This document shows, in pieces, positions 418-46,893 of a stretch of 64,000 nt of DNA (its first letter is position 1; each line of letters opens with the position of its first letter). The DNA is from Limisphaerales bacterium (lineage in GTDB: Bacteria; Verrucomicrobiota; Verrucomicrobiia; Limisphaerales; SIBE01). The notes under the pieces were generated by a model. It saw nothing but the letters and a program-made list of their open reading frames with translations, was not told the origin of the DNA and did no database searches. A program made the translations under genes and the position numbers. Where the stretch lies: the NCBI GenBank assembly GCA_044225505.1, contig JBGAIN010000018.1, forward strand, positions 5,353 to 69,352, written 5' to 3'.

Positions 418-1509
418 TCAGCAGGGAACAATGGTCGGGCCAAGCTGCGCCTCGTGGAACCACTGGGTCACCAACTCCGGTATCTTTTGCCCTAGCGTCA
501 GACTTTTCCCCCTCCCGAGTCTTGCGAAAACATGATCACGAGCCGCTTTGGAACCGCCCAATATCTCGCGGATCAAGAAAGCCCTCCGCGCGCCCGCGTT
601 GCTTAAACGTTCCACCTCCCAGCAGACATTACGCAAATCAGCGGCAATGCTACACCACTTTTTGAGCGACTCTAAGGGCAGTTTATCTTTCAGAACCGGT
701 TGCGAAACATGCATAGCGTCCTCGATCATTTCTGTGATCTTGCGGTTGTAATCGCGGGGGTCCTTCGTATTGTTGGCACCATCCTGCCGCGAATGGATAC
801 GCCAGCCACCCCACGTGTCAGGGACATGGATTGTATTCGTAACCAGGGCCACTCTCATACTCCAATGAAAATCTCCCACGCCTCCCCAGCGGTTATTATA
901 AAAGCCGACGTCATCAAACACAGTGCGGCGAACCAAAAGCTGAGTTAAGGTGACGTAAACGCTTTCCCCACACAAATACAACAGACCGTCGAAGGGTGCT
1001 CTCCGTAAATGGCGTTGATTGACCAGTCCATCGCTACTGCGCGCGAAAATCGATGTGGTCTGCCAGTTATTCGTCCGTTCGTTGCCATTTTCGTCAATCA
1101 GCCGAAGAGGACAGTGCGCCAGACCGCACTCCGGGTGGGCTTCCATGGCATTCACCAACGTCTCTAAGAAGTTCGCCGGCATCACGTCGTCGGCACCGAG
1201 CCCGGAAACATACTTGCCTCGAGTTTGTCGGAAGCAATTATTCCAGTTATCGCTCAACGACAAAAATTTGTCATTGTTTGATATTTTGATGCGAGGATCC
1301 AACTTTGCGTACTTTTGCGCAATGGCGAGCGTCCCGTCCGTGCTACAATTGTTGCCGATCAGATAGGTCCAGTTTTGGTAGGACTGCGCGCACACGCTTT
1401 CTATACACTCCGCCAAAAAAGCTTCGCCATTATAGACTGGCGTCATGATCGTGACTGGGGGCTGTTCTTTCATCGAAATAGTGTTGAAGCTACACGTCAT
1501 CCTGTCCAA
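418..1509 (-). CDS. Glycosyltransferase family 2
   Basis: VTIMTPVYNGEAFLAECIESV...NNCSTDGT...LGADD (GT-A DxD-type motifs). Confidence 0.9.
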   Translation of the reverse strand: MDRMTCSFNTISMKEQPPVTIMTPVYNGEAFLAECIESVCAQSYQNWTYLIGNNCSTDGTLAIAQKYAKLDPRIKISNNDKFLSLSDNWNNCFRQTRGKYVSGLGADDVMPANFLETLVNAMEAHPECGLAHCPLRLIDENGNERTNNWQTTSIFARSSDGLVNQRHLRRAPFDGLLYLCGESVYVTLTQLLVRRTVFDDVGFYNNRWGGVGDFHWSMRVALVTNTIHVPDTWGGWRIHSRQDGANNTKDPRDYNRKITEMIEDAMHVSQPVLKDKLPLESLKKWCSIAADLRNVCWEVERLSNAGARRAFLIREILGGSKAARDHVFARLGRGKSLTLGQKIPELVTQWFHEAQLGPTIVPC

Positions 1510-2389
1510 CCCGCCTCGGGCCAGGTCTCGCAGTGCTGTCGCGCTTTGAAGAAAATCCTAGAGAGACCCGGGTCGCTTTCGCCCATCTTCCAGACGCGAG
1601 TCTCTGCAAACCAAGCGGAGTTCCAATGTCCAGATACTCCGCTGATGGGAAAATCACGCTCTGCACCCGCAACCCGCTCTGAAGAGCCGCTTCCACCACA
1701 TGGCCCGCCGTCAGTTCGGGGGGCAGTCCCCGCCCGACTCGCTGAGCTGAGGTTCGCGGACTCTTCAAATAAGTGTGTAAGAATTCGGTAAACCGCGGCG
1801 TCCAAACTGCGAGGAGCCACGTCAGCCTCAGATCAGTCGCCTGCGGCTTAAGCAGGATACGATGCACTTGCCCTTGCTCATCGATCTCGACCATATCCAT
1901 CATTTGAGGGTCATGGGCCTTAAAAAGACCGAGAACAAGTTCAGCCTTGGTTTTCCGCAACCGTTGCAGAGCCTTGCCGAAGGCGTCCATGGCGGTAAAG
2001 AGGATGTCGGGAAATCCTATGGCAATGGTCGCCCCGCGCACGAAAGGGTACGCTTGATCCAGGGTGTAGGGTGGGCCATACGGCGCTCCGACCATCAAAT
2101 AGCCCAAATCCAAACCCACCAGCTTGCCGTCTCCGTAATACTCCGGAATGTCCCACTTGCCTTTTCGAAGAATTAAGAACGCCTTGCTTACCCCGCCTGT
2201 TCGCATCTTCTCCAAAAGGTGTTCGGAGACGAGCTGTAACCTGGCTTTCCCATTTCCAAACTGACCGACTCCCACGGGCAGCAACTCTTTGCTGCAAGGC
2301 AGCGGCGAAATTCGAGTCGCGTAGCCTCCGCATGGGATCAAACCGATTACATCCTTATTTCGCATGAAAGACGGCCTAGACAGAGTCAA
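1490..2389 (-). CDS. Sugar-1-phosphate nucleotidyltransferase (dTDP-glucose pyrophosphorylase-like)
   Basis: GLIPCGGYATRISPLPCSKELLPVG N-terminal motif, GFPDILF, YLDIGTP. Confidence 0.8.
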   Translation of the reverse strand: MTLSRPSFMRNKDVIGLIPCGGYATRISPLPCSKELLPVGVGQFGNGKARLQLVSEHLLEKMRTGGVSKAFLILRKGKWDIPEYYGDGKLVGLDLGYLMVGAPYGPPYTLDQAYPFVRGATIAIGFPDILFTAMDAFGKALQRLRKTKAELVLGLFKAHDPQMMDMVEIDEQGQVHRILLKPQATDLRLTWLLAVWTPRFTEFLHTYLKSPRTSAQRVGRGLPPELTAGHVVEAALQSGLRVQSVIFPSAEYLDIGTPLGLQRLASGRWAKATRVSLGFSSKRDSTARPGPRRVGQDDV

Positions 2390-3378
2390 TCGGCTTCGTT
2401 CGTCATCCAGGCAGGAGTCGCGCTCGGATTAAAGTCTCTTTCACTCACGACCTCGGGCTCAATGAATATCCGCCGTTTCCCATCCATGAAATACAACGAG
2501 GGCTGATGGAGAGCTGCCTTGGCAGTGAAAAGTTCTAGAAACTCGCGGCCGGTCAACTCCTCGTTCAGATCAAGGCGGGCTGGTTCCGCACCCACCGAGC
2601 TTAAGCTCCTATCCGCAGGTCGATCGGTGTCATCGTAGAGCCGAACCCGCATATGGACTCGGTTGGAGCCATCAACAAAATAGGCACATGGATACGGCGG
2701 ATAGGTCCGCGCCCGAAGCAGATTGACGATTTCGCTGCCCCGGTATTTTTTCTCCACGGAAATCGCATCTACCTTCGACAGCTCGGCCTTGCGATGGAGG
2801 GTTGCCTTGGAATGATCTTGCGTGCGCCGTTGTTGTGTATCTTCCCTAAGCAAGGGCCATGTTTCTTTAAATAGCTGGACCAGACCGCGGGTAGTTTTTT
2901 CATGAAGCGAGCCGGCGGTGTCTGTCGGCCCCACCATAATCTCCCGTTGGGCAATGACGTCTCCCGTATCCACGCCTTCATCGATATAGTGGATCGTGTA
3001 GCCTGCCGGGGTGCCGTCCAAGAGCGGCCAAACGTTGGTGTGCCATCCCCGGTTCCACGGCAAGAGCGCTGTGTGGAGGTTGATGCAGCCTTTGGGAAAG
3101 ATTTCGAGGAGCTCCGGCTTGAGGATATACCCAAACCAGCCGGAAACACCCATCTCGGGCTTTAACTCACGAATCTGGCGCAGCGTTTCCGGCACGCGCA
3201 ACGCAGGCGCCCGCCAAACTCGATCAGGAGGCAGGTTTAACTCCGACAGGATCTGAGGGGCGAAGCGCTGATCCGACTCAGGCTGAACTATCAGGCCTAC
3301 GATCTCCTCGCCCGATTGGTGGAGCCACTTGGCGATTTGCCATCCACCCCAATTATTCAAGAACAAAAACGTGCGCAT
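2386..3378 (-). CDS. N10-formyl-THF-dependent formyltransferase, likely sugar N-formyltransferase
   Basis: INLHTALLPWNRG and HYIDEGVDTGD retain catalytic Asn/His/Asp; glycan-cluster context. Confidence 0.85.
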   Translation of the reverse strand: MRTFLFLNNWGGWQIAKWLHQSGEEIVGLIVQPESDQRFAPQILSELNLPPDRVWRAPALRVPETLRQIRELKPEMGVSGWFGYILKPELLEIFPKGCINLHTALLPWNRGWHTNVWPLLDGTPAGYTIHYIDEGVDTGDVIAQREIMVGPTDTAGSLHEKTTRGLVQLFKETWPLLREDTQQRRTQDHSKATLHRKAELSKVDAISVEKKYRGSEIVNLLRARTYPPYPCAYFVDGSNRVHMRVRLYDDTDRPADRSLSSVGAEPARLDLNEELTGREFLELFTAKAALHQPSLYFMDGKRRIFIEPEVVSERDFNPSATPAWMTNEAD

Positions 3379-3423
3379 TTTCTAAGTCATCCAAGAATTT
3401 TTCGATCTCGCGCCTGTGCGGAT

Positions 3424-4347
3424 TTACGCCGCCTTCATAGCCGCTGGGCAACAGATCAACCGTTCCACCATCGGATGTGGCATGATTCCGCGCACAGCTT
3501 GAAAATATCGTGTCTGCAGAGCCTTCAATACGGAGCTTTCCGACGACAGCGGAAAACCTTCGATCGACTTGACGGGTAACACTTCAGCCAGGGTACCGCA
3601 CAACGCCAGCTCATCGGCGATCAGCAACTCCGTCCGATCGATCGGCCTTCGGACAAAAGGGATGTTCAGTGAGGCAGCCAGCGCTTCGATGACATCGACG
3701 GTGATACTTTCAAGCGCTCCTTCGCTGGCCGGAGGTGTATACACCGTTCCTTCGCGAACCATCAATATGCAACTGCCGGTGGATTCGGCCACACGCCCCC
3801 ACTGGTTCAGCAAAACCATATCTTGACACCCGACGCGCCGCCCCTCGATCCGAGCCAACCGTCCCACCTGGTAGTTCGTGCCGGTTTTAATGCGTGCGGG
3901 AAGAGAAACGTCTGGGCTTCGGCGCCAGGTGCTAACCCCTAAATCAATCGCCTGCGGCAGTGCCGGGTCCGCTTGATAAGCCGTAACGATGAATTCGGCA
4001 ACTTGATCCTCCCCCCAGTGACCTTGCGTGACAAATAGGGTTGGGCGGAACCACATCTCCTTTCCAGGCTGAAGAAGAGCGCCAGCCAAGTCGGATGCGG
4101 CTTTCGCAAATTCTTCGAAGGAGAGGTCGAATGGAACGTGCAACAACCGGGCAGACCGTTTCAGGCGATTGTAGTGACTCCGAAGCATGACGATGGCAAG
4201 CGAGCCATCGGGTTGCCGGTACCCCTTGAGGCCCTCAAATACGTTTAACCCTCGTATTGCGGCTTCGCATCCCACGTGCAACGTGGCCTTGTCCCAGTCG
4301 CACAGCTGACCACCCATGTACGCGAATTCAGGTTTTTGCAGTTTCAT
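3424..4347 (-). CDS. PLP-dependent aminotransferase class IV (branched-chain amino acid aminotransferase-like)
   Basis: VFEGLKGY, PARIKTGTNY (catalytic Lys), ESTGSCIL, LEGI-like 'ALESIT', CGTLAEVLPV. Confidence 0.85.
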   Translation of the reverse strand: MKLQKPEFAYMGGQLCDWDKATLHVGCEAAIRGLNVFEGLKGYRQPDGSLAIVMLRSHYNRLKRSARLLHVPFDLSFEEFAKAASDLAGALLQPGKEMWFRPTLFVTQGHWGEDQVAEFIVTAYQADPALPQAIDLGVSTWRRSPDVSLPARIKTGTNYQVGRLARIEGRRVGCQDMVLLNQWGRVAESTGSCILMVREGTVYTPPASEGALESITVDVIEALAASLNIPFVRRPIDRTELLIADELALCGTLAEVLPVKSIEGFPLSSESSVLKALQTRYFQAVRGIMPHPMVERLICCPAAMKAA

Positions 4348-4374
4348 TTTGAATTGACAATACTCTTCTCTCGA

Positions 4375-5712
4375 TCACTGAGCTTTTCTTAGTAGTTGAT
4401 GGCTAACCAGACTATCTGCCGCCTGCCTTATAATGTCGAACTTCACACCCGCTCGTTCTGCAATCTCAAGCAGCGTGTTTTCACCATCGGATAGATTTAG
4501 AACCCAAAGCAATGCCATTTCGAAAGCCTTGCCTTGGTTCTGCCCACCCATCGTTGCATACAGACCACGCCTCCCTAATTGCGGTTCGCATTTTGGATTC
4601 TTATTGATAAATCGCTCGTTACCCTCCAAGATCGAAATGACTTGTAGAAGTTTGCCCAACGAGTCTCGCAGGGCATCTGGCCGCACTAACTCCAAATTGT
4701 CCGCAGAGGTGTGATACTCTGGATAGCGCCCATTGGGAGTCCGAAGAAAACATCCCACTGGCAAGTTAAACCCTGGCGAACAGTACTGTCGCTCGTCATA
4801 ACCATACGGCGTGAACTCGAGAACCTCATGGGGTTCCCCAGAATGCTTTAGAACATGAACCGCTGCCCGGTCGATCTCCGCCGTCCCCTGCCGGCTCCTC
4901 TTGTAGGTGCAGTGCCCCGGATCTCCGACACAGCTGAGCACCAGCCCGTGCCTGACTTTTGCCGCTTGCGCTTCATTCTGAGCCAACCAGGTGATCGATC
5001 CAATCGTCCCCGGAATGAAGAGAAACCGATAAGTGAATCGTCGATGTGCTCTTGCCTGGAGCAAGCGCGCCAGGTAGACCGCTACGGCGATTCCCGAAAG
5101 ATTGTCGTTTGCAAGTGACGGATGGCAAACATGACAAGACAATAAAACCTCGGCGCTCTCTTCGCCCGGGAGAATGAACTCGCCATACGTTAGCGAACCA
5201 GGCGCTAAAGTGGAGTCAATGCAAACGTCGTAATCAGCCTCGGCCAAGCGGTTCAGTTGCCTATCGCTCAAGCAAAAGCCCCATCGATCCGCGTAGTAGG
5301 ACGTTCGATAGGGAACCCAGTCCGGGTGGTCCGGGAGCGAATACAAGTGTTTTCTTAGCTCCGAAAGTCCCATTCGCTGACTGACTGGAATGCTATAATT
5401 AAGCACATGAAGATTGCATTTCTTAAAGTCCACCACGCGTTCACCCTGGGGATTTTTAATATACGCATCGCGAATGTTCCACTCCTTCGGGACCGTCCAG
5501 TCGAATACGGGAGTTCCACTCGGGACCTCAACTACGGATAGGGGCAACCGCGACGCCACTCGTCGCAGTGTCTCTCGCACCCCTTCGCCAGTGATACTAC
5601 GGCAGATCGGAAACAGCTCGGCAACGAGCTCGAACATCTCTTGTCCCAACGCTTTCGATGGAAGTTCACTCCACGAAGGGTGCCCGACCGGCGAACCTGG
5701 ATTTGGATTCAT
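4375..5712 (-). CDS. DUF4910/DUF2172 aminopeptidase-like protein with C-terminal winged helix
   Basis: LFPICRSITGEGVRETL, FDWTVPKEWNI, HPSLANDNLSG, GYDERQYCSPGFNLPVG, YHTSADNL; C-terminal LLEIAERAG. Confidence 0.9.
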   Translation of the reverse strand: MNPNPGSPVGHPSWSELPSKALGQEMFELVAELFPICRSITGEGVRETLRRVASRLPLSVVEVPSGTPVFDWTVPKEWNIRDAYIKNPQGERVVDFKKCNLHVLNYSIPVSQRMGLSELRKHLYSLPDHPDWVPYRTSYYADRWGFCLSDRQLNRLAEADYDVCIDSTLAPGSLTYGEFILPGEESAEVLLSCHVCHPSLANDNLSGIAVAVYLARLLQARAHRRFTYRFLFIPGTIGSITWLAQNEAQAAKVRHGLVLSCVGDPGHCTYKRSRQGTAEIDRAAVHVLKHSGEPHEVLEFTPYGYDERQYCSPGFNLPVGCFLRTPNGRYPEYHTSADNLELVRPDALRDSLGKLLQVISILEGNERFINKNPKCEPQLGRRGLYATMGGQNQGKAFEMALLWVLNLSDGENTLLEIAERAGVKFDIIRQAADSLVSHQLLRKAQ

Positions 5713-5727
5713 GGGGGGCGCAGAACC

Positions 5728-6963
5728 TCAACCCACAACTCGCACTTGGGGAATCGGCACAACAAATTGTCCTCCCCATTCTCTTATCGATTTCATTTGA
5801 GTCCGAATCTCCTCCTGCAGGTTCCACGGTAGAATGAGAAGGTAATCGGGCTTCGTTTGCATAATTCTTTCCGGGCCGTGGATCGGAATGCGAGTTCCGG
5901 GCAAGTAGAGACCTTGTTTGTGCGGGCTGCGGTCCACCACATAGTCGATAAAATCCGTTCGCACGCCGCAGTAATTCAAGAGGGTGTTCCCTTTGGCAGC
6001 CGCCCCATACGCCACAACCGTCTTTCCAGCATCCTTCGCCTGAATTAAGAACTGCAACAGTTTTCTCTTTGTCGCTTGGACCTTCTTTGTAAACGCCGCA
6101 TAGGTTTCTGCCGAGGCCAATCCCGCAGCCTTCTCGGCGCTAATTACCTCGTCCACATTCGTCGACCGCTCGCGCGTCCCCGCGTGGCAGGCGAAAATCC
6201 TTAGTGAACCGCCGTGCGTCGGTAATTCCTGCACGTCAAAAATGTCCAAACCGTGCGCAGCAAATACTTTCTCCACGGTCATCAAGGATAAATACGAAAA
6301 GTGCTCGTGGTAGATCGTATCAAACTGATTGTGTTCCACCAACCGTAGCAAGTGAGGAAACTCAATCGTTAACGCCCCGCTAGGCTTGAGGACCAGTTTC
6401 AACCCTTTGACGAAGTCATTCAGATTAGGCACATGGGCCAAAACGTTATTTCCGAGAAGCAAGTCGGCCTGCGTTGCCTGGCCCAGCAACTCACGCGCGG
6501 TCGCTTCGCCGAAGAAACGCACCAGTGTTGGCACTCCCTTCTTTTCCGCAGCCGCTGCGACATTCGCGGCCGGGTCAATTCCCAAAACTGGAATGCCCTG
6601 ATTTACGAAATACTGCAGTAAATAGCCGTCATTTGAGGCGATCTCAATCACCTTGCTCTTGGCATTAAGCCCGAACCTTTGAACGGCCATTGCCACGTAG
6701 TTTTGCGCGTGCTTCAGCCAGGAATCCGAAAACGATGAAAAGTAGGCGTAATGATCGCTGAAGATGTGCTCTGGGCTCTGGCACTCCTGCAACTGGACAA
6801 GCCAACAACTATCACAAACAAGCACATGGAGTGGATAGAATGGCTCCATTTGTGTGAGTTGCTCCGATTTAAGATAATCGTTCGCAACTGGAGACAGCCC
6901 TAGATCAACAAATGTGGTGTTCAGTTTGGAGTTGCAAAACCGGCAGTTCTGAGAGTGCTTCAT
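5728..6963 (-). CDS. NDP-hexose C-methyltransferase (Zn-binding N-domain, SAM domain, C-methyltransferase C-domain)
   Basis: CRFC...CDSC Zn ligands, EIASNDGYLL, FDTIYHEHFSY, YGAAAKGNTLLNYCG. Confidence 0.92.
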   Translation of the reverse strand: MKHSQNCRFCNSKLNTTFVDLGLSPVANDYLKSEQLTQMEPFYPLHVLVCDSCWLVQLQECQSPEHIFSDHYAYFSSFSDSWLKHAQNYVAMAVQRFGLNAKSKVIEIASNDGYLLQYFVNQGIPVLGIDPAANVAAAAEKKGVPTLVRFFGEATARELLGQATQADLLLGNNVLAHVPNLNDFVKGLKLVLKPSGALTIEFPHLLRLVEHNQFDTIYHEHFSYLSLMTVEKVFAAHGLDIFDVQELPTHGGSLRIFACHAGTRERSTNVDEVISAEKAAGLASAETYAAFTKKVQATKRKLLQFLIQAKDAGKTVVAYGAAAKGNTLLNYCGVRTDFIDYVVDRSPHKQGLYLPGTRIPIHGPERIMQTKPDYLLILPWNLQEEIRTQMKSIREWGGQFVVPIPQVRVVG

Positions 6964-7086
6964 GTCTAATTAACTTAGTTTTTATTATGAGCGAGTCTTA
7001 ACTGAGGAACGTCGCCCCTCTGGTCATTTTCCAACTTTCGAGCCACATAGCGACACGACGAAAGCGGGCTAATCATCCGCCGTTTT

Positions 7087-7626
7087 TCAATCCCTAGCGT
7101 CCTGAAGCAATGGCCAGGTGGCGTCCTTTTCACTGACGACAGTCACCGGCAGCGGCCACGGAATGCCAAGAACAGGGTCATTGTAACGAAGTCCACGCTC
7201 CTGGCCCGCCGCGTAGAACTCCCCCATCAGGTAGAGCAGTTCGGACCCGTCCACTAGCGTCTGGTTTCCGTGGGCAAACATGTCGGGGATATAGATTGCC
7301 AATCGATTCTCGGCGCTTAGTTCGAACGCGACGTGTTGCAGATAGGTTGGTGAACCAGGGCGAAGGTCGACGATCACGTCCCAGATAGCTCCGCGAACGC
7401 AGCGAACGAACTTTGGTTCACTCGCGGGTGCCATCGCATAGTGCATGCCACGAACTGTTCCTCTTTTTTCGTTGAAGGACAAATTCGCCTGCACCATCGT
7501 GCTACTCAGTCCACGTTCGGAAAACTCTCTAGCGCAGTAAGCTCGGGCAAAAAAACCTCGCTGGTCGATTTTCTTGTCGAGATCGACTAGAAACGCTCCC
7601 TTCAACTTGGTCTCTTGAAATAGCAT
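7087..7626 (-). CDS. rfbC: NDP-4-keto-6-deoxyhexose 3,5-epimerase (RmlC/RfbC family)
   Basis: DQRGFF, RGMHY, FAHGNQTL, VSEKD; start moved to ATG 7626 (MLFQETKL). Confidence 0.85.
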   Translation of the reverse strand: MLFQETKLKGAFLVDLDKKIDQRGFFARAYCAREFSERGLSSTMVQANLSFNEKRGTVRGMHYAMAPASEPKFVRCVRGAIWDVIVDLRPGSPTYLQHVAFELSAENRLAIYIPDMFAHGNQTLVDGSELLYLMGEFYAAGQERGLRYNDPVLGIPWPLPVTVVSEKDATWPLLQDARD

Positions 7627-7641
7627 GGAAACCAGAATCAA

Positions 7642-8676
7642 TTAATCACTGAGCTTTGTCCAAAAGAAGTCCTTGTCAATCTGTTGCGTCCGAATCAAGT
7701 ACTCCAGTTCTTTGAGCCGCGTAAACGCTCGATGAGTGAATACATCGCGGTTAAGATCGATTCGCTTGAAAAGTTTGTAGAGTTGCTGGACGCCCTTTTC
7801 CACGTTCCACGTACATTCAAACCCAGGCAATCGTGTCGCTGCCTTTTCGAATGATACCCGATAACTTCGATTATCCGCTCCGCTCGTTCCGAATTTCAAA
7901 TCACAGCCTACAAAAGTCCGCGCGATGATTTCGGCAATCTCCCGCACTTTGTAGTTTTGGCGTGTGTCACCAACGTTGAATATCTCGTTATGAATCGCAT
8001 CGATAGGTGCCGCCAAAGCGCAAACGACGGCTCGGCAGATATCAAGGCCGTGAACTAAAGGACGCCAAGGAGAGCCGTCGCTGGTCATCTTAATCTCATT
8101 TGTGGTCCATGCCAGACCACAGAGATTGTTCACCACGAGATCAAATCGTTGCCGGGGGGAAGCCCCAAATGCGGTTGCGTTTCGAAGGAACACCGGGCTG
8201 AACTTGCTATCGGCCAGCTTTTTGACATCTCGTTCCACCAAAGTTTTGCAGACCGCGTATGCAGTTTGAGGATTTGTCGGTGACTCCTCAGTGACAAAAT
8301 CTTCACTCGCCACCCCGTAGACACTGCATGACGAGGTGTATATGAAACGCCTCACGCCAGCACTCTTGGCCAACTGGGCGAGACGAACTGAGCCCTGATG
8401 ATTGATTTGATACGTAATGTTTGGAGAGAGTTCTCCGGTCGGGTCGTTCGAAAGTTCCGCGAGATGGACAACCGCATCAAATCCGCGTAGATCGTCGATC
8501 TCGAGATGTCGGATGTCTTTTGAGAGCGTCTTTGGAGTCGGCAGGGCGGGAGTAAAAAGCCAGCCATCCCTATAGAACCCGGTATCGACACCTGTAACTT
8601 CGTCACCTCTCTGAATTAGCGTGGGAGCGAGCAACGCCCCTAAGTATCCTTCCGTGCCTGTAACTAGAATTTTCAT
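7642..8676 (-). CDS. NAD-dependent epimerase/dehydratase (extended SDR)
   Basis: MKILVTGTEGYLG (GxxGxxG variant), SSCSVYG, YAVCK (YxxxK); start at ATG 8676 rather than ORF-track 8757. Confidence 0.9.
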   Translation of the reverse strand: MKILVTGTEGYLGALLAPTLIQRGDEVTGVDTGFYRDGWLFTPALPTPKTLSKDIRHLEIDDLRGFDAVVHLAELSNDPTGELSPNITYQINHQGSVRLAQLAKSAGVRRFIYTSSCSVYGVASEDFVTEESPTNPQTAYAVCKTLVERDVKKLADSKFSPVFLRNATAFGASPRQRFDLVVNNLCGLAWTTNEIKMTSDGSPWRPLVHGLDICRAVVCALAAPIDAIHNEIFNVGDTRQNYKVREIAEIIARTFVGCDLKFGTSGADNRSYRVSFEKAATRLPGFECTWNVEKGVQQLYKLFKRIDLNRDVFTHRAFTRLKELEYLIRTQQIDKDFFWTKLSD

Positions 8677-8817
8677 TGCATTTGACCTGTCATGCGCCAT
8701 CCCAATAGGCATAAGCGCCCAATAAGTTTTTCGGACTTTATCCAGTGAGCCTACCAAATAACTTAACAGCTTCTGCGCGACTCCGGCTATTCGCGCCCAT
8801 GCCAGCCTCGTCTGGCT

Positions 8818-9591
8818 TTACCAGACTTTCCAAGGGGCTTGGCCCGAGTTCCAGATTTCCTCGAGCATTTGTTTCTCCTTAAGTGTGTCCATGCACGACC
8901 AAAACCCAACATGGCGGTAACCAGCTAGCTGGCCATCATGCGCAAGTTTCTCAACGGGTTCACGCTCCCACGCGATATCATCGCCAGCGATGTATTTCAA
9001 CGCTTCGCGCTGAAGGGCAAAATATCCTCCGTTAATCCACCCTTCTCCCGCCTCGGGCTTTTCACGAAACTCGCGCACCAAAGGCCCGTCGAAGCCGATG
9101 CGTCCAAAGCGCGCCGGAGGCCGAACGGTGGTGATGGTGGCAAGTTTTCCGTGCTCATGGTGATATTTGAGCAGAGCCTGCAGATCGACGTCGGCAACCC
9201 CGTCCCCGTACGCGAACATGAAGGTCTCATCGTCTCCAAGCCAGCGCTCCAGTCGTTTCAGGCGCCCCCCCGTGTTGGTCCTAAGCCCAGTGTCCACCAA
9301 GTGAACCTTCCATTTCGGCTCGTTTCCATGGTGGATGATGGTCTGGCCTGAGGCAAGGTCGATAGAAACATCGTTATTCAGGGCGTAGAGATTCAAGAAA
9401 TACTCTTTAACAATTTCTCCTTTATAGCCTAAAGCAATAATGAACTCCGTGAAGCCATTGGCAGAAAAAATGTTCATGATGTGCCATAACATCGGACGCC
9501 CTCCAATTTCCACCATGGGTTTTGGGCGCAACCCAGTTTCTTCAGACAGTCTTGAACCCAATCCTCCCGCAAGAATGATAGTCTTCATCAC
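8818..9591 (-). CDS. rfbF: Glucose-1-phosphate cytidylyltransferase
   Basis: ILAGGLGSRLSEETGLRPKPMVEIG, TNTGGRLKR, GFWSCMDTLKEK. Confidence 0.93.
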   Translation of the reverse strand: MMKTIILAGGLGSRLSEETGLRPKPMVEIGGRPMLWHIMNIFSANGFTEFIIALGYKGEIVKEYFLNLYALNNDVSIDLASGQTIIHHGNEPKWKVHLVDTGLRTNTGGRLKRLERWLGDDETFMFAYGDGVADVDLQALLKYHHEHGKLATITTVRPPARFGRIGFDGPLVREFREKPEAGEGWINGGYFALQREALKYIAGDDIAWEREPVEKLAHDGQLAGYRHVGFWSCMDTLKEKQMLEEIWNSGQAPWKVW

Positions 9592-9608: not shown

Positions 9609-10364
9609 CTATGTGTTTGTAGAAGTCCTTTGATCAAAGCCGGCGCTTTTTGCTCGGTCCCCTACCGGTGCGCCCGTTCCATCACGGTATTTAACAACTC
9701 TAGCTGCGTTGCCGATCGCGATCGCCCCTGCGGGCACGTCCCGAGTGACGACCGCACCAGCTCCGACCACTGCGCCCTTCCCAATGGTAACTCCACAGAG
9801 GACCGTCGCCCCCACTCCCAGCCACGCATCTTCTTCAATGACAATAGGGCCCTTGGAACAAAGCGGCTGTTCATAAATCGCGCGGCCGGCCACGGCCTGG
9901 TGATCGTAGGAAAAAAAAGTGCAGTAAGGTGCGATCTGCACGCGCCGCCCGATACGTATTGGCTGCACCGCCGCCACGAAAAGGCAGCGGGCTTGAACCT
10001 TAGCGTCATCCCCAATCTCAATTTGCCCGCCAGTGAAGAGCTCCAAACTACACTCGCGATTAATATGGACCCTAGCCCCCAGCTTGACGTTGCCAGTGCC
10101 TTCCCACTTTGCAAACAGAGCGCCTTCCCCAATGTAAACATTGGCTCCAAGCTGAAGATTAAGACCGATGATCTCTGCATCCGGCGCGACGTAGCCTTTG
10201 GGCGTGAGATCCGCGAGTAAATAACGGCCCCGGAAAGGAAGAACGCCGACCGACCCCAAGCGGGTGGCGATGCGCTGCAGCGAACCCACGCCGCCCCGTT
10301 GAAGCCAAAAAATTTGCCATCGCCGATAGAATTTTTGCGACCAGCTCGACATGCTCAGGCACAC
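9609..10364 (-). CDS. Hexapeptide-repeat acyltransferase
   Basis: Left-handed beta-helix repeats: IVIEEDAWLGVGATVLCGVTIGKGAVVGAGAVVTRDVP. Confidence 0.88.
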   Translation of the reverse strand: MCLSMSSWSQKFYRRWQIFWLQRGGVGSLQRIATRLGSVGVLPFRGRYLLADLTPKGYVAPDAEIIGLNLQLGANVYIGEGALFAKWEGTGNVKLGARVHINRECSLELFTGGQIEIGDDAKVQARCLFVAAVQPIRIGRRVQIAPYCTFFSYDHQAVAGRAIYEQPLCSKGPIVIEEDAWLGVGATVLCGVTIGKGAVVGAGAVVTRDVPAGAIAIGNAARVVKYRDGTGAPVGDRAKSAGFDQRTSTNT

Positions 10365-11746
10365 GCGCGAACTAACCCGTCCGAACCAGGTTCTTCACCC
10401 ACAGCTGACGAACAACTCGACGGCAGCGACATACGGCTGGAATTCGCTGGCCCTTTTTCACCTTTAGGCACAAAGGTCGTCGTCCATTGCAGCATGGGAC
10501 GTAAAATTCCGGGCAGTGGCCGATCGTAATCTCCACGCGAAGTGTCCTGGGCGGTTAAGCAATCGATGACCCGGAACGCGACAGCATCTTCTACCAGCGC
10601 TCGCACTGTCTCCGGCCGCAAGGTCATGACCACTGCCAAAACGGAAACAAGTCCTTCGGCCAGGAGATTACCTGGAATCCAGCCCGTGCTAATGTACCGA
10701 CCCGGGGGACGCTTTCGGCCTCGCCATTCCGGATCAACATCGACACCGACAAAGAGGAGGGTCCCATCTTCGTTTCTTAAGCCGAAGTGAGGGAAAAAGA
10801 GATGTCCAGGCTCCAAGACTTCAAATTCCAACTCAATTCCCACCTCGTGACGCACATCGATCGAATCCACCAGCGCTCCCGACCTGGACCTCACCCGCAC
10901 AGCGCAGAGGCGGCCTGCGCTATCACCGGGAGCTTCCTTCAGGGTAGGCCACTCGCGGGACGCAGACGTGGTGGCGTCCGTTTTTAGATAGGCGTTCGCC
11001 ACTTGTTTCGAAGGTCCATCCATTTTGACTTCGCCGCGGTGCAACAGCACACACCGAGAGCAAAGCCGAGTGACTGCTTGCATATTGTGCGACACGAACA
11101 AGACCGTGCGACCCGCTTGGGCCACGTCGCCCATCCGGTTTAAGCACTTTTTCTGAAACTCTGAGTCACCCACCGCCAGCACCTCATCCACGACCAGTAT
11201 TTCGGGTTCCAGATGCGCCGCGACGGCAAAGGCAAGTCGCACATACATGCCAGAGGAATACCGCTTTACAGGCGTGTCGAGGAATTTCTCAATGTCCGCA
11301 AAAGCGACAATTTCATCAAATTTGCGCCGGATCTCCGATCGCGCCATACCCAGGATCGCACCATTTAGGTAGACATTCTCTCGTCCGGACAACTCCGGGT
11401 GAAATCCGGTGCCAACTTCAAGCAAGCTTGCCACTCGGCCGCGAATACGAACGCGTCCCGATGTGGGTTCGGTAATCCTGCTCAGCAGTTTCAGCAAAGT
11501 CGACTTACCCGCACCATTTCGCCCGATGATTCCAATCACCTCGCCCCGCTTGACTTCGATGGAGATATCGCGCAAAGCCCAGAAATCCTCAGGCGGCGCT
11601 TGGACGCGACGGACGCCCCTTAACCACTGCCACGGCGACCTTATCGCGTCCTCTAAACGGTGGCGGAGGCCATGATCTTGTTCAACCCTAGCTCCTAGAG
11701 TGTATCTCTTAGAGAGCTGCTCAACCTGGATAACGATGTCGCTCAT
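10355..11746 (-). CDS. wzt: Polysaccharide ABC transporter ATP-binding subunit with C-terminal Wzt_C-like domain
   Basis: Walker A GRNGAGKST, signature YSSGMYVRLAF, Walker B ILVVDE, plus ~180-aa beta-rich C-terminal extension. Confidence 0.93.
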   Translation of the reverse strand: MSDIVIQVEQLSKRYTLGARVEQDHGLRHRLEDAIRSPWQWLRGVRRVQAPPEDFWALRDISIEVKRGEVIGIIGRNGAGKSTLLKLLSRITEPTSGRVRIRGRVASLLEVGTGFHPELSGRENVYLNGAILGMARSEIRRKFDEIVAFADIEKFLDTPVKRYSSGMYVRLAFAVAAHLEPEILVVDEVLAVGDSEFQKKCLNRMGDVAQAGRTVLFVSHNMQAVTRLCSRCVLLHRGEVKMDGPSKQVANAYLKTDATTSASREWPTLKEAPGDSAGRLCAVRVRSRSGALVDSIDVRHEVGIELEFEVLEPGHLFFPHFGLRNEDGTLLFVGVDVDPEWRGRKRPPGRYISTGWIPGNLLAEGLVSVLAVVMTLRPETVRALVEDAVAFRVIDCLTAQDTSRGDYDRPLPGILRPMLQWTTTFVPKGEKGPANSSRMSLPSSCSSAVGEEPGSDGLVRACA

Positions 11747-11753
11747 CTCGAAC

Positions 11754-12596
11754 TCAAATTACATCAGCAAAACCACGTTCGGTCTTTCGGAAATAATAAA
11801 TGCCGGTCGTCAACAAAAACACAATGATTGCGCAGGACATGAGGAAGCTCATCCAATTTAGGCTATGGTCACCGCCAAGGACTGCCCAGCGGAACCCGTC
11901 GATTACCCCTACCATTGGATTTAACGAATATAGGAATCGCCACTGCTCCGGAACAACGTTACTCGTAAACCCCACGGGCGAGACGTAAAGTCCGAACTGT
12001 GTCACGAATGGAAGGATGTGGCGGAAATCTCGATATTTTACCATAAGAGCTGAAACCCACAGTCCAGCACCTAGTGCCGCGCCAAAAGCCAGCAAGACGA
12101 ATGCCGGTAAGAGGATAATCCTCGGACCTGGTACAAACTGAAACCAAATCATCAAAACCGCCATAAACAGCGCCGATATCGCGAAATCCACAAGGCTCGT
12201 GATTATACTGCTGGCTGGCACGACTAGTCGTGGGAAATAGACCTTCGAGATGAGGTTCGAATTGTTCACAAGGCTAGCGCCGCTTTCAGATATTCCTGTC
12301 GCAAAGAACTGCCAAGGCAACATGCCGCAAAAGACAAGCAGTGAGTAGGGCGCTCCGCCTGAAGGCAGCTTGGCGAACCGTCCGAAGACCACGGTCAAGA
12401 CGACCATCGTCAAGACTGGCCTAATAAGTGACCACGCTATACCAACCGCAGTCTGTTTATAGCGCACCAGGAGGTCTCGCCACGCCAGGAAATAAAAGAG
12501 CTCACGGAATCGCCAAAGATCCTGCCAGTACTGACGTTCTTTGCGTCCGGCTTCAATTACTAGTTCTTGCACAAGTTTCTCTCGAGTTAACAGCAA
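11754..12596 (-). CDS. wzm: Polysaccharide ABC transporter permease
   Basis: RYKQTAVGIAW, NLISKVYFPR, LNPMVGVIDGFR; hydrophobic helices; adjacent to wzt. Confidence 0.93.
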   Translation of the reverse strand: MLLTREKLVQELVIEAGRKERQYWQDLWRFRELFYFLAWRDLLVRYKQTAVGIAWSLIRPVLTMVVLTVVFGRFAKLPSGGAPYSLLVFCGMLPWQFFATGISESGASLVNNSNLISKVYFPRLVVPASSIITSLVDFAISALFMAVLMIWFQFVPGPRIILLPAFVLLAFGAALGAGLWVSALMVKYRDFRHILPFVTQFGLYVSPVGFTSNVVPEQWRFLYSLNPMVGVIDGFRWAVLGGDHSLNWMSFLMSCAIIVFLLTTGIYYFRKTERGFADVI

Positions 12597-34965: not shown

Positions 34966-36060
34966 TCAACGTTGCACAAACCGCCCGTAGAGAAGAGAGC
35001 CAGCCACGCGACTCAACCACAACGGAGCCCATCGGAATAGCTGAGCAGGCCACCCCAGAGCTCGATCGTGGTCTTTCAAAAAACTCATTTTACCGAGACT
35101 AAATCGAAAATATTCTATCACTTCTTCGGTCGCACCCCAACTAAGCTTAAATCTCCTTAGACCTTCATTGGCCAAGGAGGTTCGACCTAAATGCAAACGA
35201 GAGCATTCGCCGTGCGCAAGGAATTTGATGGCCTCCCACATTACCAAGTGGTTCGGACGAAGGTCTCGGTGTTCCCATGCGGATGCCCCGAACTTGAACA
35301 CTGCCTTGTCTCCGAACCGAAAAAAAACGGCCCCACCCACCGGGACGCTGTCTTTTACTGCGATCACCACAAAACCAAGTCCCGCCCGGATCACATATTC
35401 ATATATGTTTCGGAACAGAGAAATAGGCTGAGGCGGCACCCCGTGCCGTCTGCGGGTGGCGCAGTGAAGCTTATAATAGCTTAAAACCGCGTCAAATCCA
35501 ACGGAAACGACAGCGCTAACCCCTTCTCTTTCAGCTTTCCGAATGCCTCGCCGCACCGAGGGGTCGAAGCTCTGGAAAGTTTCCTCAATCTTTGGATTAA
35601 TGTTCAGACGGTGGCCGTAAAACGTGAGCGAGGGCGACGCCTGAGGGTTTAGAGTTCTACCCCCGCGCCATTCCAACGTCTGCCAACTCCGTTCTCGAGC
35701 CATTTGAGTCAAGCGTTGCCAAGTGCTGGACGCTTCCGCTTCGTCCCAGAACAACGGCTCGCACAAGTCTGTGAACGGTAGGCAGGTGCCGTGTTTTTTC
35801 CCCAAGACAGAAGTCGTTTCCAGAAAGGGAATCAACGCGCCAGTCTGATTCTTCCCGCCGGAAATAAATCCCAGCGGGCGAAACCCGTAAGTGTGACTCA
35901 ATAGCCGCAGCCAGTGCGTCGTATGAAAAAAGGTACTTTCCGGGTGCCCAGCACAGACGTCATTCCAATCCGCCCGAGCGTTTGGGTCAAAGAAATCCAA
36001 CTCGCTTTTGCTAGCGTCGACTTCCCCATGCGCGACCGGCTTGTCACACGCCAGCACCAT
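34966..36060 (-). CDS. FemAB-like GNAT family protein
   Basis: HPESTFFHTTHW, VRRGIRKAEREGV, RPNHLVMWEAIK, GLRRFKLSWGA. Confidence 0.8.
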   Translation of the reverse strand: MVLACDKPVAHGEVDASKSELDFFDPNARADWNDVCAGHPESTFFHTTHWLRLLSHTYGFRPLGFISGGKNQTGALIPFLETTSVLGKKHGTCLPFTDLCEPLFWDEAEASSTWQRLTQMARERSWQTLEWRGGRTLNPQASPSLTFYGHRLNINPKIEETFQSFDPSVRRGIRKAEREGVSAVVSVGFDAVLSYYKLHCATRRRHGVPPQPISLFRNIYEYVIRAGLGFVVIAVKDSVPVGGAVFFRFGDKAVFKFGASAWEHRDLRPNHLVMWEAIKFLAHGECSRLHLGRTSLANEGLRRFKLSWGATEEVIEYFRFSLGKMSFLKDHDRALGWPAQLFRWAPLWLSRVAGSLLYGRFVQR

Positions 36061-36067
36061 AGTGGGA

Positions 36068-37180
36068 TTACGTACGCTGACCGCAGAAACTGCGCACTTC
36101 CCGAGCGACAGTCTCCACGTCTGGACGACTCAATCCGGGAAACATAGGGAGTGACAGGATCTCTTCCGTTGCGCGCTCGACACAAGGAAACGAACCTTGC
36201 CCGAGGCCCAAAAACGCATAAGCCGGCGTCAAATGGATCGGGACAGGATAATGGATCAACGAGCCAATCCCTTTGGCCGAGAGGTGGCGCATGAGTTCCG
36301 CTCTGTCACCTCGAATGCGAATCACATAAAGGTGATAAACATGCCGGCTGTAGTCGGCTTCAACCGGTGTGGAGACGCAGGATAGCCCTTGCAGCGCCTG
36401 ATTGTAGACAGCCGCGCATTCTCGCCGCAGGTCATTCGCCGGGGTCAACTCTTTCAGTTTGGCCCGTAAAACCGCACCTTGGATACCGTCCATACGTCCA
36501 TTCCAGCCCACCAACTTGTGCTGGTAACGAGCGACCTGGCCATGGTCTCTCAGACAGTCAACGTGTTCCTTGACCTTCCGGTTATTTGTGACCACTGCTC
36601 CGGCTTCGCCAAATGCTCCCAGGTTCTTGGTAGGATAAAAACTAAAGCAGCCAGCATCCCCTAAACTCCCAACCCGGCGACCTTTGTAGGTCGCTCCGTG
36701 GGCTTGGCAGGCATCTTCGACAACCGCGAGCTTGTGGCGCTTGGCAATCTCGAGGATTGGATCCATGTCCGCCGGCTGCCCGTACAGATGGACCGGGATG
36801 ATCGCCTTGGTCCGCGGCGAGATCGCTCGCTCTATCTTGTTTGGGTCCATCGTGAATGTCTTTTCATCGACATCCACAAACTTCGGAATCGCTCCGCACC
36901 AGCTGATCGCTTCGGCCGTGGCGATAAAACTATTGGGGACTGTGATCACTTCGTCGCCGGGCTGCACACCGAGCGCGAGGAGCGCCAGCCACAAAGCATC
37001 GGTGCCATTTCCGACTCCGGAAGCAAATTGTGTCTGGCAATAAGCTGCAAAATCCGTCTCAAACGCCGTTACAAAAGAACCGCCCGCAAAGGCGCTGCTT
37101 TTGATCACCTGTTGGATAGACTCGTTGATCTCTTGAAGCAATGAGTCGTGAACTTTTAGACTGACAAATGGAATTTGCAT
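36068..37180 (-). CDS. DegT/DnrJ/EryC1/StrS sugar aminotransferase
   Basis: GNGTDAL, EDACQAHG, FSFYPTKNLGAFGEAG (PLP Lys). Confidence 0.93.
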   Translation of the reverse strand: MQIPFVSLKVHDSLLQEINESIQQVIKSSAFAGGSFVTAFETDFAAYCQTQFASGVGNGTDALWLALLALGVQPGDEVITVPNSFIATAEAISWCGAIPKFVDVDEKTFTMDPNKIERAISPRTKAIIPVHLYGQPADMDPILEIAKRHKLAVVEDACQAHGATYKGRRVGSLGDAGCFSFYPTKNLGAFGEAGAVVTNNRKVKEHVDCLRDHGQVARYQHKLVGWNGRMDGIQGAVLRAKLKELTPANDLRRECAAVYNQALQGLSCVSTPVEADYSRHVYHLYVIRIRGDRAELMRHLSAKGIGSLIHYPVPIHLTPAYAFLGLGQGSFPCVERATEEILSLPMFPGLSRPDVETVAREVRSFCGQRT

Positions 37181-37675
37181 CTACTTACCTTGTGGAACTT
37201 TTCGGACGGTTCGAGCCGGGTTTCCGGCAACTATGACGTTGGCTGGGACATCTTTGGTCACGACGCTGCCAGCCCCGACGATGGCGTTCTCCCCAATGGT
37301 GACACCGCACAGAATGGTCGCACCCGATCCGACAGACGCGCCGCGGTGGATGCGAGTTGCCTCGCATTTCCAATCCGCTTCGCTCTGCAGTTGGCCCGTC
37401 TGATTTGTGGAGCGGGGAAAGCGGTCATTAATGAAGGTAACTCCGTGCCCGATAAAGACGTCGTCGTCGATGGTGACACCTTCGCAAATAAAAGTATGGC
37501 TGGAGATCTTGCAGCGATTTCCGATCGTCACGCCTTTCTGGATTTCAACAAAGGTTCCGACCTTAACGTCATCACCTATCTTGCAGCCATAAAGGTTCGT
37601 GAAATCACGAATTTGGACGCGCTCTCCCAATCGCACGTCGGGTGCGATCTTCTGTAACCCGGAAGATTGGCTCAT
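37181..37675 (-). CDS. Hexapeptide sugar N-acetyltransferase
   Basis: GTFVEIQKGVTIGNRCKISSHTFICEGVTI, FINDRFPR, VAGNPAR. Confidence 0.9.
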   Translation of the reverse strand: MSQSSGLQKIAPDVRLGERVQIRDFTNLYGCKIGDDVKVGTFVEIQKGVTIGNRCKISSHTFICEGVTIDDDVFIGHGVTFINDRFPRSTNQTGQLQSEADWKCEATRIHRGASVGSGATILCGVTIGENAIVGAGSVVTKDVPANVIVAGNPARTVRKVPQGK

Positions 37676-38763: not shown

Positions 38764-38767
38764 GAAT

Positions 38768-39685
38768 CTAATTCTTTCTGCTTTCCTGAGTTCGAAGGCG
38801 CTTGGCTAAACGGGACTCTCGCACTTGCGCACAGACGGCTGGGAGCGTCTGGAGAATGATCGACAAATCCAACCAGAAACTTCGGTTTGCCACATAATGC
38901 AAATCCAGCTGCATCATTTCGGAGAAACTAGTGCCCGACCGCCGCTTGATCTGCCACAACCCGGTCATTCCGGGAGGACTATTAAAGCGCTGCCTGTGCC
39001 AAGGTAGGAGTTGATTGTATTCATACTCCATACACGGGCGCGGACCGACAATACTCATCTCTCCAAGCATGACATTGATCAACTGTGGAATCTCGTCCAC
39101 GCACGACGTGCGAAGGAACCTTCCAAGCGGAATTACCCGCTTGTCCCCTCGCAAATCCAGCTTCACCAACGGCAAATCATTAGCAATTAACTTGCCTACG
39201 TATTCCCGGTGCAAACCAGGATCCGCGTTGACGTGCATTGTCCGAAATTTCCAACAGGTAAACGGCTTTCCACGGTATCCAATGCGCTCTTGCCGGAAGA
39301 ATACAGGTCCCTTTGAAACCAATTTAATTAACAAAGCGACCACCAGCATCACCGGCAGAATGACTGGCAGACCGAGCAGAAGCAGGAATAGGTCCAAGCA
39401 GCGTTTCCAAACTGGCGCCCCCGAACCCGACTCATTGGTTGTCGCCGGCGACACCAAACTCAGTTTCCCAGGATCCCCTTCGACGCACTCCTTATGCACA
39501 GCACCTCCGTTGGTAGAATTAACACAGCTGCCTTTCGATCTACTCGCCGAACTTTCTAGAGTAGGACCGCTGACGTCGTCAAGGTTGGGGTAGGCTGTCG
39601 AGAATCTGAAAGATGGTTGGGGGAACACCTTACAGAAGTTTTCGGCACGCTTAAAACGAAATAAAAAAGGGATCCGGCTTTTCAT
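38768..39685 (-). CDS. Priming sugar transferase (phosphoglycosyl transferase C-domain)
   Basis: KRCLD, GPVFFRQERIG, KFRTM, DEIPQLINV..GEMSIVGPRP, PGMTGLWQ. Confidence 0.92.
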   Translation of the reverse strand: MKSRIPFLFRFKRAENFCKVFPQPSFRFSTAYPNLDDVSGPTLESSASRSKGSCVNSTNGGAVHKECVEGDPGKLSLVSPATTNESGSGAPVWKRCLDLFLLLLGLPVILPVMLVVALLIKLVSKGPVFFRQERIGYRGKPFTCWKFRTMHVNADPGLHREYVGKLIANDLPLVKLDLRGDKRVIPLGRFLRTSCVDEIPQLINVMLGEMSIVGPRPCMEYEYNQLLPWHRQRFNSPPGMTGLWQIKRRSGTSFSEMMQLDLHYVANRSFWLDLSIILQTLPAVCAQVRESRLAKRLRTQESRKN

Positions 39686-46887: not shown

Positions 46888-46893
46888 CTCTGT

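Follow-up and report, generated by a model that had tools for sequence, protein, structure and literature searches.

How a nucleotide-activated sugar might be aminated in a gene block that holds an IlvE-like enzyme of fold type IV and no DegT aminotransferase is the question raised by a locus of a Limisphaerales bacterium (contig JBGAIN010000018.1 of assembly GCA_044225505.1, positions 5,353 to 69,352); the whole stretch of 64,000 nucleotides is referred to here as the window. Textbook routes to amino sugar nucleotides use aminotransferases of fold type I, the DegT family. The answer favoured here, which we give somewhat better than an even chance of being right, is that the block makes a nucleotide-activated C-methyl-branched 4-formamido-4-deoxy-hexose for a polysaccharide exported by Wzm/Wzt, with the fold-type IV enzyme (AT, for aminotransferase) acting at C4 and an adjacent formyltransferase (FT) formylating the product. 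Of two possibilities put forward in an earlier, sequence-only reading of this DNA, direct amination of the sugar by the class IV enzyme is the one favoured by the context evidence, namely the front ends that feed the cassette, the sink needed for its keto intermediate and the N-acyltransferases that accompany the AT. That reading had also described seven contiguous genes on one strand, and these were confirmed with their named domains at 2386-9591 on the minus strand, neighbours being separated by gaps or overlaps of at most about 140 bp. With a second nucleotidyltransferase-like gene, NTP2, the genes of the block are as follows.

8818..9591, minus strand: RfbF, glucose-1-phosphate cytidylyltransferase, which makes CDP-glucose (TIGR02623, 356.5 bits; cut-off 300.25)
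7642..8676 (open reading frame up to 8757), minus strand: extended short-chain dehydrogenase/reductase (SDR), proposed Cj1427-like nucleoside diphosphate (NDP)-sugar C4 dehydrogenase (SSCSVYG and YAVCK motifs)
7087..7641, minus strand: RmlC-like NDP-4-keto-sugar 3,5-epimerase (PF00908, 1e-59; TIGR01221, 158.6 bits; cut-off 155.75)
5728..6963, minus strand: TylC3/TcaB9-type NDP-4-keto-sugar C-methyltransferase (Methyltransf_13, a Zn domain, with Methyltransf_23 and Methyltransf_14)
4375..5712, minus strand: DUF4910/DUF2172/HTH_47 M28-like protein (PF16254, 2e-115; PDB 3k9t, E 4e-146)
3424..4347, minus strand: AT, fold-type IV (IlvE-like) pyridoxal phosphate (PLP) enzyme, proposed NDP-4-keto-sugar C4 aminotransferase (PF01063)
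2386..3378, minus strand: FT, sugar N-formyltransferase (PF00551 and PF18216, Formyl_trans_N and N_formyltrans_C)
1490..2365, minus strand: NTP2, second sugar-1-phosphate nucleotidyltransferase-like enzyme (PF00483, 4e-6)

In the proposed pathway RfbF would supply CDP-glucose, as its equivalog score indicates. The single SDR would then oxidise C4 in the manner of Cj1427, keeping the 6-hydroxyl and converting 2-oxoglutarate to L-2-hydroxyglutarate. The RmlC-like protein is predicted from its family to epimerise C3 and/or C5, and the C-methyltransferase to methylate a carbon beside the keto group, most likely C3. The AT would transaminate the C4 keto group, probably from L-glutamate, returning the 2-oxoglutarate consumed by the SDR; this is the novel step. 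Finally, family and gene adjacency suggest that FT may turn the amine into a formamide. RfbF, RmlC, the C-methyltransferase and FT are thus assigned at the level of family, and the SDR and AT steps are read from their context.

Membership of the AT in fold type IV is clear. It matches Aminotran_4 (PF01063) at 125.8 bits, the fold-type I DegT model PF01041 gave no match to it, and the catalytic lysine and the PLP-contacting arginine, glutamate and tyrosine are all kept, with Lys154, Arg61, Glu188 and Tyr159 aligning with K159, R59, E193 and Y164 of 1i1k. Its scores are under the cut-offs of all IlvE, Dat and PabC models (NF005146, 200.6 bits against 279; TIGR01122, 177.3 against 245.6). The genome holds three Aminotran_4 genes, of which the one on contig C74, 31% identical to the AT, is a true IlvE (NF006185, 464 bits; cut-off 363) and the one on contig C295 is PabC, adjoining PabB. 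Relatives of the AT, 54-76% identical, are widely distributed, occurring in Nitrospirota, Verrucomicrobiota, Planctomycetota (Scalindua), Bacteroidota, Acidobacteriota, Thermodesulfobacteriota, Chloroflexota, Kiritimatiellota, Cyanobacteriota and Pseudomonadota, with the best 120 cluster representatives all above 64% identity. A maximum-likelihood tree unites them in a single clade with 100/100 support, set off by a long stem and at odds with the species phylogeny. Housekeeping IlvE was rejected as an identity for the AT in view of the separate IlvE, the sub-cut-off scores and this clade of its own, and the suggestion that the class IV enzyme is something other than the genome's IlvE is borne out. 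The clade lies nearest to 6h65 and 6gkr, also the nearest solved relatives (E 2e-48 and 1.5e-37), which we take to be non-canonical class IV transaminases that accept amines without a carboxylate. The residues that presumably line the substrate pocket of E. coli IlvE (1i1k), Tyr31, Arg40, Tyr95 and Arg97, are in the AT Arg32, Lys41, Trp99 and Arg101, and Arg32 and Trp99 are invariant across the AT family.

Conservation of the gene grouping was assessed in a census of 80 species loci around AT homologues, in which neighbours were scored by tblastn and by unbiased clustering. The decisive counts are those from tblastn; the open reading frame caller mis-called some antisense frames in high-GC loci. 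Within 10 kb of the AT, and nearly always on its strand, DUF4910 was found in 55 loci, RfbF in 54, the C-methyltransferase in 51, RmlC in 43, NTP2 in 31 and FT in 8. Twenty-five loci have no DUF4910 in this range; 21 of these genomes could be searched whole and 18 of the 21 have it elsewhere, and in the 11 genomes where the distant DUF4910 is on the AT contig there is a C-methyltransferase within about 5 kb. Altogether DUF4910 is present in 73 of 76 testable AT-bearing species genomes, as against 22 of 401 in the phylum of the window and a published background of 229 of 4789 genomes (PMC4000134). The converse fails, in that eight clusters of C-methyltransferase and DUF4910 in the phylum belong to genomes without an AT. 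Because genomes with an AT hold DUF4910, while AT-free clusters of C-methyltransferase and DUF4910 exist, the AT looks like an addition that depends on the C-methyl cassette. The predicted linkage of AT, DUF4910 and C-methyltransferase is therefore conserved elsewhere, almost always with DUF4910 beside a C-methyltransferase, and the block can be accepted as a genuine nucleotide-sugar module that has been conserved.

The enzymes that feed the core differ between loci. RfbF is accompanied by an SDR of the window (Cj1427-like) type in 32 loci, by a genuine CDP-glucose 4,6-dehydratase, RfbG (TIGR02622, 457-506 bits), in six, and by a nucleotide-sugar 6-dehydrogenase (UGDH) with a UXS/ArnA-like decarboxylase SDR in 11, the pentose route; three further loci have a GmhA/HddA/HddC-GmhB heptose route and an SDR. 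All of these front ends should, from the enzymes that they contain, deliver an NDP-4-keto sugar, which is what a C-methyltransferase of the TylC3/TcaB9 type needs; that of the window has the full three-domain set (PF08421, 86.6 bits; PF13489; PF08484, 230 bits). The pentose-route loci, all 11 of them, lack RmlC, which 32 of the 38 others have (p 4e-7), and this absence of a 3,5-epimerase matches the prediction from the sugar chemistry.

A 4-keto intermediate must finish by reduction or by amination. AT clusters show just one SDR next to the core, and they lack DegT. In the eight AT-free clusters of C-methyltransferase and DUF4910, where the AT is absent genome-wide, extra SDRs are found in five, compared with 3 of 40 AT clusters (p 0.0015), and Chroococcidiopsis has a second SDR after DUF4910 (supplement of PMC4000134). 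In Scalindua the order is RfbF-RfbG-AT-CMT-RmlC-DUF4910 (CMT, C-methyltransferase), the AT occupying the slot of the second SDR in clusters ordered RfbF-RfbG-SDR-CMT-RmlC-DUF4910. The exchange of reductase for AT is a tendency and no rule. As a separate observation, a protein of about 700 amino acids follows DUF4910 in AT-free clusters from the phylum of the window (L131:5307-7430, L135:6344-8461, L137:11428-13515 and L138:6405-8492); the three scanned (L131, L135 and L137) had no Pfam match.

The nature of the AT product is indicated by the genes that follow it. FT (PF00551, 83 bits; PF18216, 54.6 bits) has the triad N100, H102 and D137, and its top PDB matches are PseJ (7e-27), WbtJ, Rv3404c, VioF and WbkC, all of which formylate a C4 amine on an NDP-sugar. 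It is predicted to be a sugar N-formyltransferase closest to the C4-amine enzymes. FT is optional in the cassette; where present it is always directly after the AT, and in every such locus it is overlapped or abutted by AT and NTP2. An N-acyltransferase invariably comes after the AT, FT in the window, Udaeobacter, Syntrophales, Starkeya and Rhizobium and an Eis-like GNAT elsewhere, and this direct succession implies an amine product. The GNAT (Acetyltransf_9, about 445-460 amino acids) follows AT or AT-NTP2 in loci without FT, as in L091:10988-12325 and L004:11810-13192, and might acylate the same amine in place of FT.

The only DegT of the window, at 36068-37180, is 27 kb away in another locus and is unlikely to feed FT. 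Such a partnership was rejected, as the DegT has its own dehydrogenase and acetyltransferase and FT is tied to AT and NTP2. The DegT locus, at 34966-39685 on the minus strand, is linked to Wzz and encodes a polyprenyl glycosylphosphotransferase-like protein, a UDP-GlcNAc 3-dehydrogenase-like oxidoreductase, a NeuD-type acetyltransferase, the DegT and a FemAB-family protein (PEP-CTERM-associated type); its logic resembles that of WbpB/WbpD/WbpE, for a 3-acetamido sugar.

The sequence-only reading had taken the SDR for a dehydratase, so that RfbF, dehydratase and C-methyltransferase would give a 6-deoxy sugar, and this part did not hold. RfbG was rejected as an identity for the window SDR: TIGR02622, the model for CDP-glucose 4,6-dehydratase, gave no match to it, and its motif, SSCSVYG, is without the Asp-Glu pair that dehydratases carry in the active site. 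No RfbG above the cut-off was found in the genome, which is 95% complete (top score 220 bits, cut-off 278), which leaves the SDR of the cluster as the sole candidate for activating CDP-glucose. Since it is not RfbG, the 6-hydroxyl of the sugar is probably kept. Its top PDB match is 6vo6 (E 3e-25, about 30% identity), an SDR of 313 amino acids from C. jejuni. Cj1427 of that organism has tightly bound NADH that is re-oxidised with 2-oxoglutarate to give L-2-hydroxyglutarate (PMC10680097). The true start of the window SDR is probably Met28, at 8676 (MKILVTG).

The flavin-dependent oxidase of cassette loci proved to be L-2-hydroxyglutarate oxidase, LhgO (NF008726, 580 bits; cut-off 299). It is found in 14 of 45 full-context loci and 16 of 80 overall, usually directly before the SDR, and accompanies the Cj1427-like SDR type in 12 of 32 loci as against 1 of 17 others (p 0.02). 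This enrichment beside the SDR fits the Cj1427 chemistry (PMC10680097). If the 4-keto sugar is transaminated and not re-reduced, the SDR needs an external oxidant, 2-oxoglutarate, and we infer a loop in which a glutamate-dependent AT returns 2-oxoglutarate and LhgO recycles L-2-hydroxyglutarate. No LhgO was found inside the window by tblastn; contig C48 of the genome carries one (597 bits), near which no cassette gene families were found.

Taken over all loci, these observations lead to a wider proposal, which we put forward tentatively and to which we give somewhat less than an even chance. A fold-type IV family resembling the branched-chain aminotransferases would be a dedicated NDP-4-keto-sugar C4 aminotransferase, a non-homologous replacement for DegT, working in a closed 2-oxoglutarate loop with a Cj1427-like SDR and LhgO. 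It would make a hitherto undescribed family of sugars, N-formylated or N-acetylated 4-amino-4-deoxy-C-methyl hexoses, pentoses and heptoses, with the terminal hydroxyl kept, for ABC-exported glycans of at least 10 phyla, including those of Nitrospira and anammox bacteria.

Two proteins of the block are less easily placed. The DUF4910 protein matches PF16254, PF09940 and PF16221, all above their cut-offs, and has a weak match to Peptidase_M28 (27 bits) in which the Glu-Glu position reads IPGT by eye. Its nearly invariant residues, His102, Glu188, Cys196-His197, Asp306-Glu307 and His334, suggest a non-peptidase metal site. The family has been described as having no peptidase site and as linked to sugar clusters, and neither the text nor the supplements of that paper mention an association with a class IV AT (PMC4000134). 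A search of 10 kb around the C-methyltransferase-linked DUF4910 genes of AT-free clusters found no DegT. Because DUF4910 is present in such clusters with no DegT found nearby, it is predicted to act on the C-methyl/4-keto branch independently of the amine. A role as N-acylase or deacylase of the new amine is disfavoured here, as the protein is equally present in the AT-free clusters, with no DegT near. NTP2 was considered as a degenerate, inactive fold, and this was rejected, its nucleotidyltransferase motifs G-x-x-x-R, SKE, GFPDI and DIGT being invariant. It adjoins the AT in 12 of 20 loci and tracks it more widely: 31 of 80 loci have it nearby, and 11 of 24 further AT genomes carry it elsewhere. 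It was found in none of the 8 AT-free genomes, nor in G386, a pentose-route genome that bears an AT. In statistical terms this accessory nucleotidyltransferase goes with the AT.

Several points weigh against the AT as a sugar aminotransferase and against the pathway built around it. To our knowledge every characterised NDP-sugar aminotransferase is of fold type I, and we know of no case in which the fold of the branched-chain amino-acid aminotransferases has been shown to aminate sugars. The AT keeps Arg101, the counterpart of the carboxylate-binding Arg97 of E. coli, which makes keto-acid substrates possible. Three AT-free clusters (L122, L131 and L136) also have only one detectable SDR, and in some loci (L019, L021, L032, Rhizobium BK313 and the cyanobacteria) the AT is more than 10 kb from any SDR. 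The top match of the window SDR, 6vo6, is presumably Cj1427, with which its organism and length agree; the same SDR type also accompanies RfbG in AT-free clusters and would there serve as the reductase, and one RfbG-type locus also has LhgO. DUF4910 and NTP2 have no assigned step. Finally, the window contains rmlA (TIGR01207, 419 bits) and rmlB (TIGR01181, 483 bits), which flank an open reading frame of 317 amino acids at 46009-48863 on the plus strand. With these genes the organism also has a route to dTDP-4-keto-6-deoxyglucose, on which AT and FT could act instead. The 317-amino-acid frame had no strong NCBIfam match.

This last point belongs to a different explanation, in which two sugars are made: AT, FT and NTP2 would aminate and formylate a common NDP-4-keto-6-deoxyhexose, from RmlA/RmlB as the dTDP form or from a precursor made by NTP2, to a product like dTDP-Qui4NFo, on the pattern of VioA/VioF, and an unrelated C-methyl sugar, not aminated, would come from RfbF, SDR, RmlC, C-methyltransferase and DUF4910, the two sets travelling together because one glycan needs both. 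It would accommodate not only rmlA and rmlB but also the use of dTDP-Qui4N by the closest characterised relatives of FT, the way in which NTP2 follows the AT and not DUF4910, the AT-FT pair that stands alone in Rhizobium BK313, and Starkeya sp. ORNL1, where NTP2-AT-FT are followed 22 kb downstream by RfbF-SDR-RmlC-CMT-DUF4910 in the order of the window. We consider it unlikely, though the best of the alternatives, since in many loci the AT is interleaved with the core, as in RfbF-RfbG-AT-CMT-RmlC-DUF4910, with no other 4-keto-resolving enzyme there, since genomes that have an AT but lack DUF4910 and the C-methyltransferase are very rare (the 73 of 76 above), and since the same AT is found in pentose- and heptose-route clusters. 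The other possibility of the sequence-only reading, that an unusual amino acid or other non-sugar amine is made by the AT, N-formylated and joined to the sugar or glycan, perhaps by the peptidase-like DUF4910 or through activation by NTP2, has become improbable. The IlvE-like character of the AT and its retention of Arg101 and Lys41 (Arg97 and Arg40 in E. coli) would suit it, a phosphorylated amine might be activated by NTP2, N-acyl-modified pseudaminic acid requires Cj1295, a DUF4910 homologue (PMC3068675), and a transacylation role has been proposed for the family (PMC4000134). This possibility nevertheless sits badly with an FT that is optional (8 of 80), has the C-terminal domain of sugar N-formyltransferases and best matches NDP-sugar enzymes, with DUF4910 in genomes and clusters lacking the AT, where no DegT turned up within 10 kb of the C-methyltransferase-linked copies, with the changes of Tyr95 to Trp and Tyr31 to Arg in the pocket, and with an operon that contains no ligase, ATP-grasp or carrier protein.

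Slightly less probable still is that the AT works on the sugar as a lyase, dehydratase or epimerase dependent on PLP, like ColD/E1-type enzymes or the HS:5 C3-dehydratase, and not as a transaminase. Fold type IV does include the lyase PabC, and PLP-dependent C3-dehydratases act on GDP-4-keto-heptose in C. jejuni (PMC10680097), but a deoxygenated 4-keto sugar would still have to be reduced and there is no reductase to do so, and the FT or GNAT directly after the AT implies an amine. Moreover, catalytic Lys154 is kept in the AT, and ColD replaces the catalytic lysine. That the AT is an ordinary branched-chain aminotransferase, a passenger in the operon by chance, is scarcely credible: although its top NCBIfam matches are IlvE models, all are under the cut-offs, the genome has a separate IlvE, and relatives of 54-76% identity occur in glycan loci over at least 10 phyla, on a long and fully supported stem.

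The preferred reading, amination of the 4-keto sugar by the AT, can be set beside known systems that each share part of its logic. The CDP-cereose/CDP-cillose operon of B. cereus, which Li et al. are said to have described in 2017 in J Biol Chem, reportedly comprises RfbF, RfbG, a C-methyltransferase and a C4 reductase. As predicted for the window, CDP-glucose comes from an RfbF-type enzyme and the 4-keto sugar is C3-methylated by a TylC3-type enzyme. The B. cereus operon, however, with its RfbG and C4 reductase, leads to 6-deoxy, non-aminated sugars, whereas the window has neither enzyme and has in addition RmlC, DUF4910, the class IV AT, FT and NTP2. The CDP-cereose/cillose pathway is mentioned in PMC7725333. 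In the heptose pathway of C. jejuni, Cj1427 is the C4 dehydrogenase, Cj1430 the C3/C5 epimerase and Cj1428 the C4 reductase (PMC10680097). Cj1427 and Cj1430 resemble the steps proposed for the window, a C4-oxidising SDR without dehydration and then an RmlC-type epimerase, and some cassette relatives share the GmhA/HddA/HddC heptose front end. The window differs in the use of CDP-glucose and not GDP-heptose, in the added C-methyltransferase and in a keto group proposed to be aminated and not reduced; LhgO is linked in cassette relatives and is not reported for C. jejuni.

Amination followed by formylation is itself familiar. ArnA/ArnB (UDP-L-Ara4N and Ara4FN), VioA/VioF, WbtJ, WbkC and PseJ have in common the conversion of an NDP-4-keto sugar to a C4 amine and then to its N-formyl derivative. 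FT is homologous to the formyltransferases of the ArnA, VioF, WbtJ, WbkC and PseJ pathways, and the cassette variant with UGDH and the UXS/ArnA-like SDR mirrors the oxidative decarboxylation by ArnA. The difference lies in the aminotransferase, ArnB, VioA, PseC and Per being fold-type I enzymes of the DegT family and the AT of fold type IV. (R)-selective and non-canonical fold-type IV transaminases accept amines or ketones without an alpha-carboxylate. The 6h65 and 6gkr enzymes share the fold of the AT, so that chemistry on substrates without a carboxylate is presumably possible; they are free-standing, with no known sugar-nucleotide substrate, whereas the AT clade has its long stem and its own invariant Arg32 and Trp99. 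The DUF4910 protein has the same three-domain architecture as CA_C2195 and Cj1295 (PMC4000134, PMC3068675), and the CA_C2195 family sits in sugar-modification operons, including some with C-methyltransferases (PMC4000134). The cassette thus joins the logic of these systems but with a fold-type IV aminotransferase. No such report was found in the literature searched, in which neither the AT family nor the cassette, fold-type IV sugar aminotransferases included, had an assigned function.

Should the proposal be correct, the fold-type IV AT would represent a second, independent enzymatic solution to sugar amination, and the annotation "branched-chain amino acid aminotransferase" would be corrected on hundreds of genes. 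New branched amino sugars would be expected on the surfaces of bacteria that matter in the environment, namely Nitrospira nitrite oxidisers, Scalindua anammox bacteria, soil Verrucomicrobiota and Bacteroidales. The coupling of SDR, AT and LhgO would explain LhgO genes in glycan operons, and there would be fewer roles to consider for the orphan DUF4910 family. The idea is directly testable in a cultured strain, as Starkeya sp. ORNL1 (L094 and L143/L144; CP048834, about 3.136-3.166 Mb), whose genome is complete, carries all eight genes, in two blocks at about 3.1358-3.1387 Mb and 3.1610-3.1662 Mb.

The transcription unit is larger than the seven genes of the sequence-only reading, the operon spanning Wzm (12596) to a glycosyltransferase (418) and including NTP2. 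Its last three genes overlap in turn, NTP2 with the stop codon of FT and the glycosyltransferase with the end of NTP2. Scans of the operon for promoters and terminators were uninformative, the counts, including the number of terminator sites, being at chance level. The remaining members of the operon are the following.

11754..12596, minus strand: Wzm, ABC-2 permease, the first gene of the operon (PF01061)
10355..11746, minus strand: Wzt, ABC ATPase with a C-terminal extension of about 200 amino acids (PF00005)
9609..10364, minus strand: hexapeptide-repeat acyltransferase, WbbJ/NeuD-like (PF00132)
418..1509, minus strand: family 2 (GT2) glycosyltransferase (PF00535)

Relatives of Wzm adjoin the cassette in 25 of 80 loci. 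Pfam called no Wzt_C in the extension of the window Wzt, and relatives 55% identical to it carry a called Wzt_C; the rare sugar could be a chain-end cap read by Wzt. The top NCBIfam match of the hexapeptide acyltransferase is WbbJ, under the cut-off, and in verrucomicrobial relatives the gene is often directly before the AT.

In a few lineages the AT lies far from sugar-nucleotide genes, as in L086 (Defluviicoccus) and L092 (Leptolyngbya). That of Defluviicoccus adjoins a divergent NTP2 and split transketolase genes, and that of the cyanobacteria an open reading frame of 242 amino acids without a Pfam match. All tested cyanobacterial and Defluviicoccus genomes have the C-methyltransferase elsewhere, and all have DUF4910 except that of Leptolyngbya (G401), which holds L092. 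In 13 of 45 full-context loci, Nitrospira loci among them, a gene for a PhyH-like Fe(II)/2-oxoglutarate dioxygenase (PF05721, E 1e-6; no NCBIfam match), absent from the window, stands between DUF4910 and NTP2 or AT (for example L049:8976-9908), and its product may hydroxylate the sugar.

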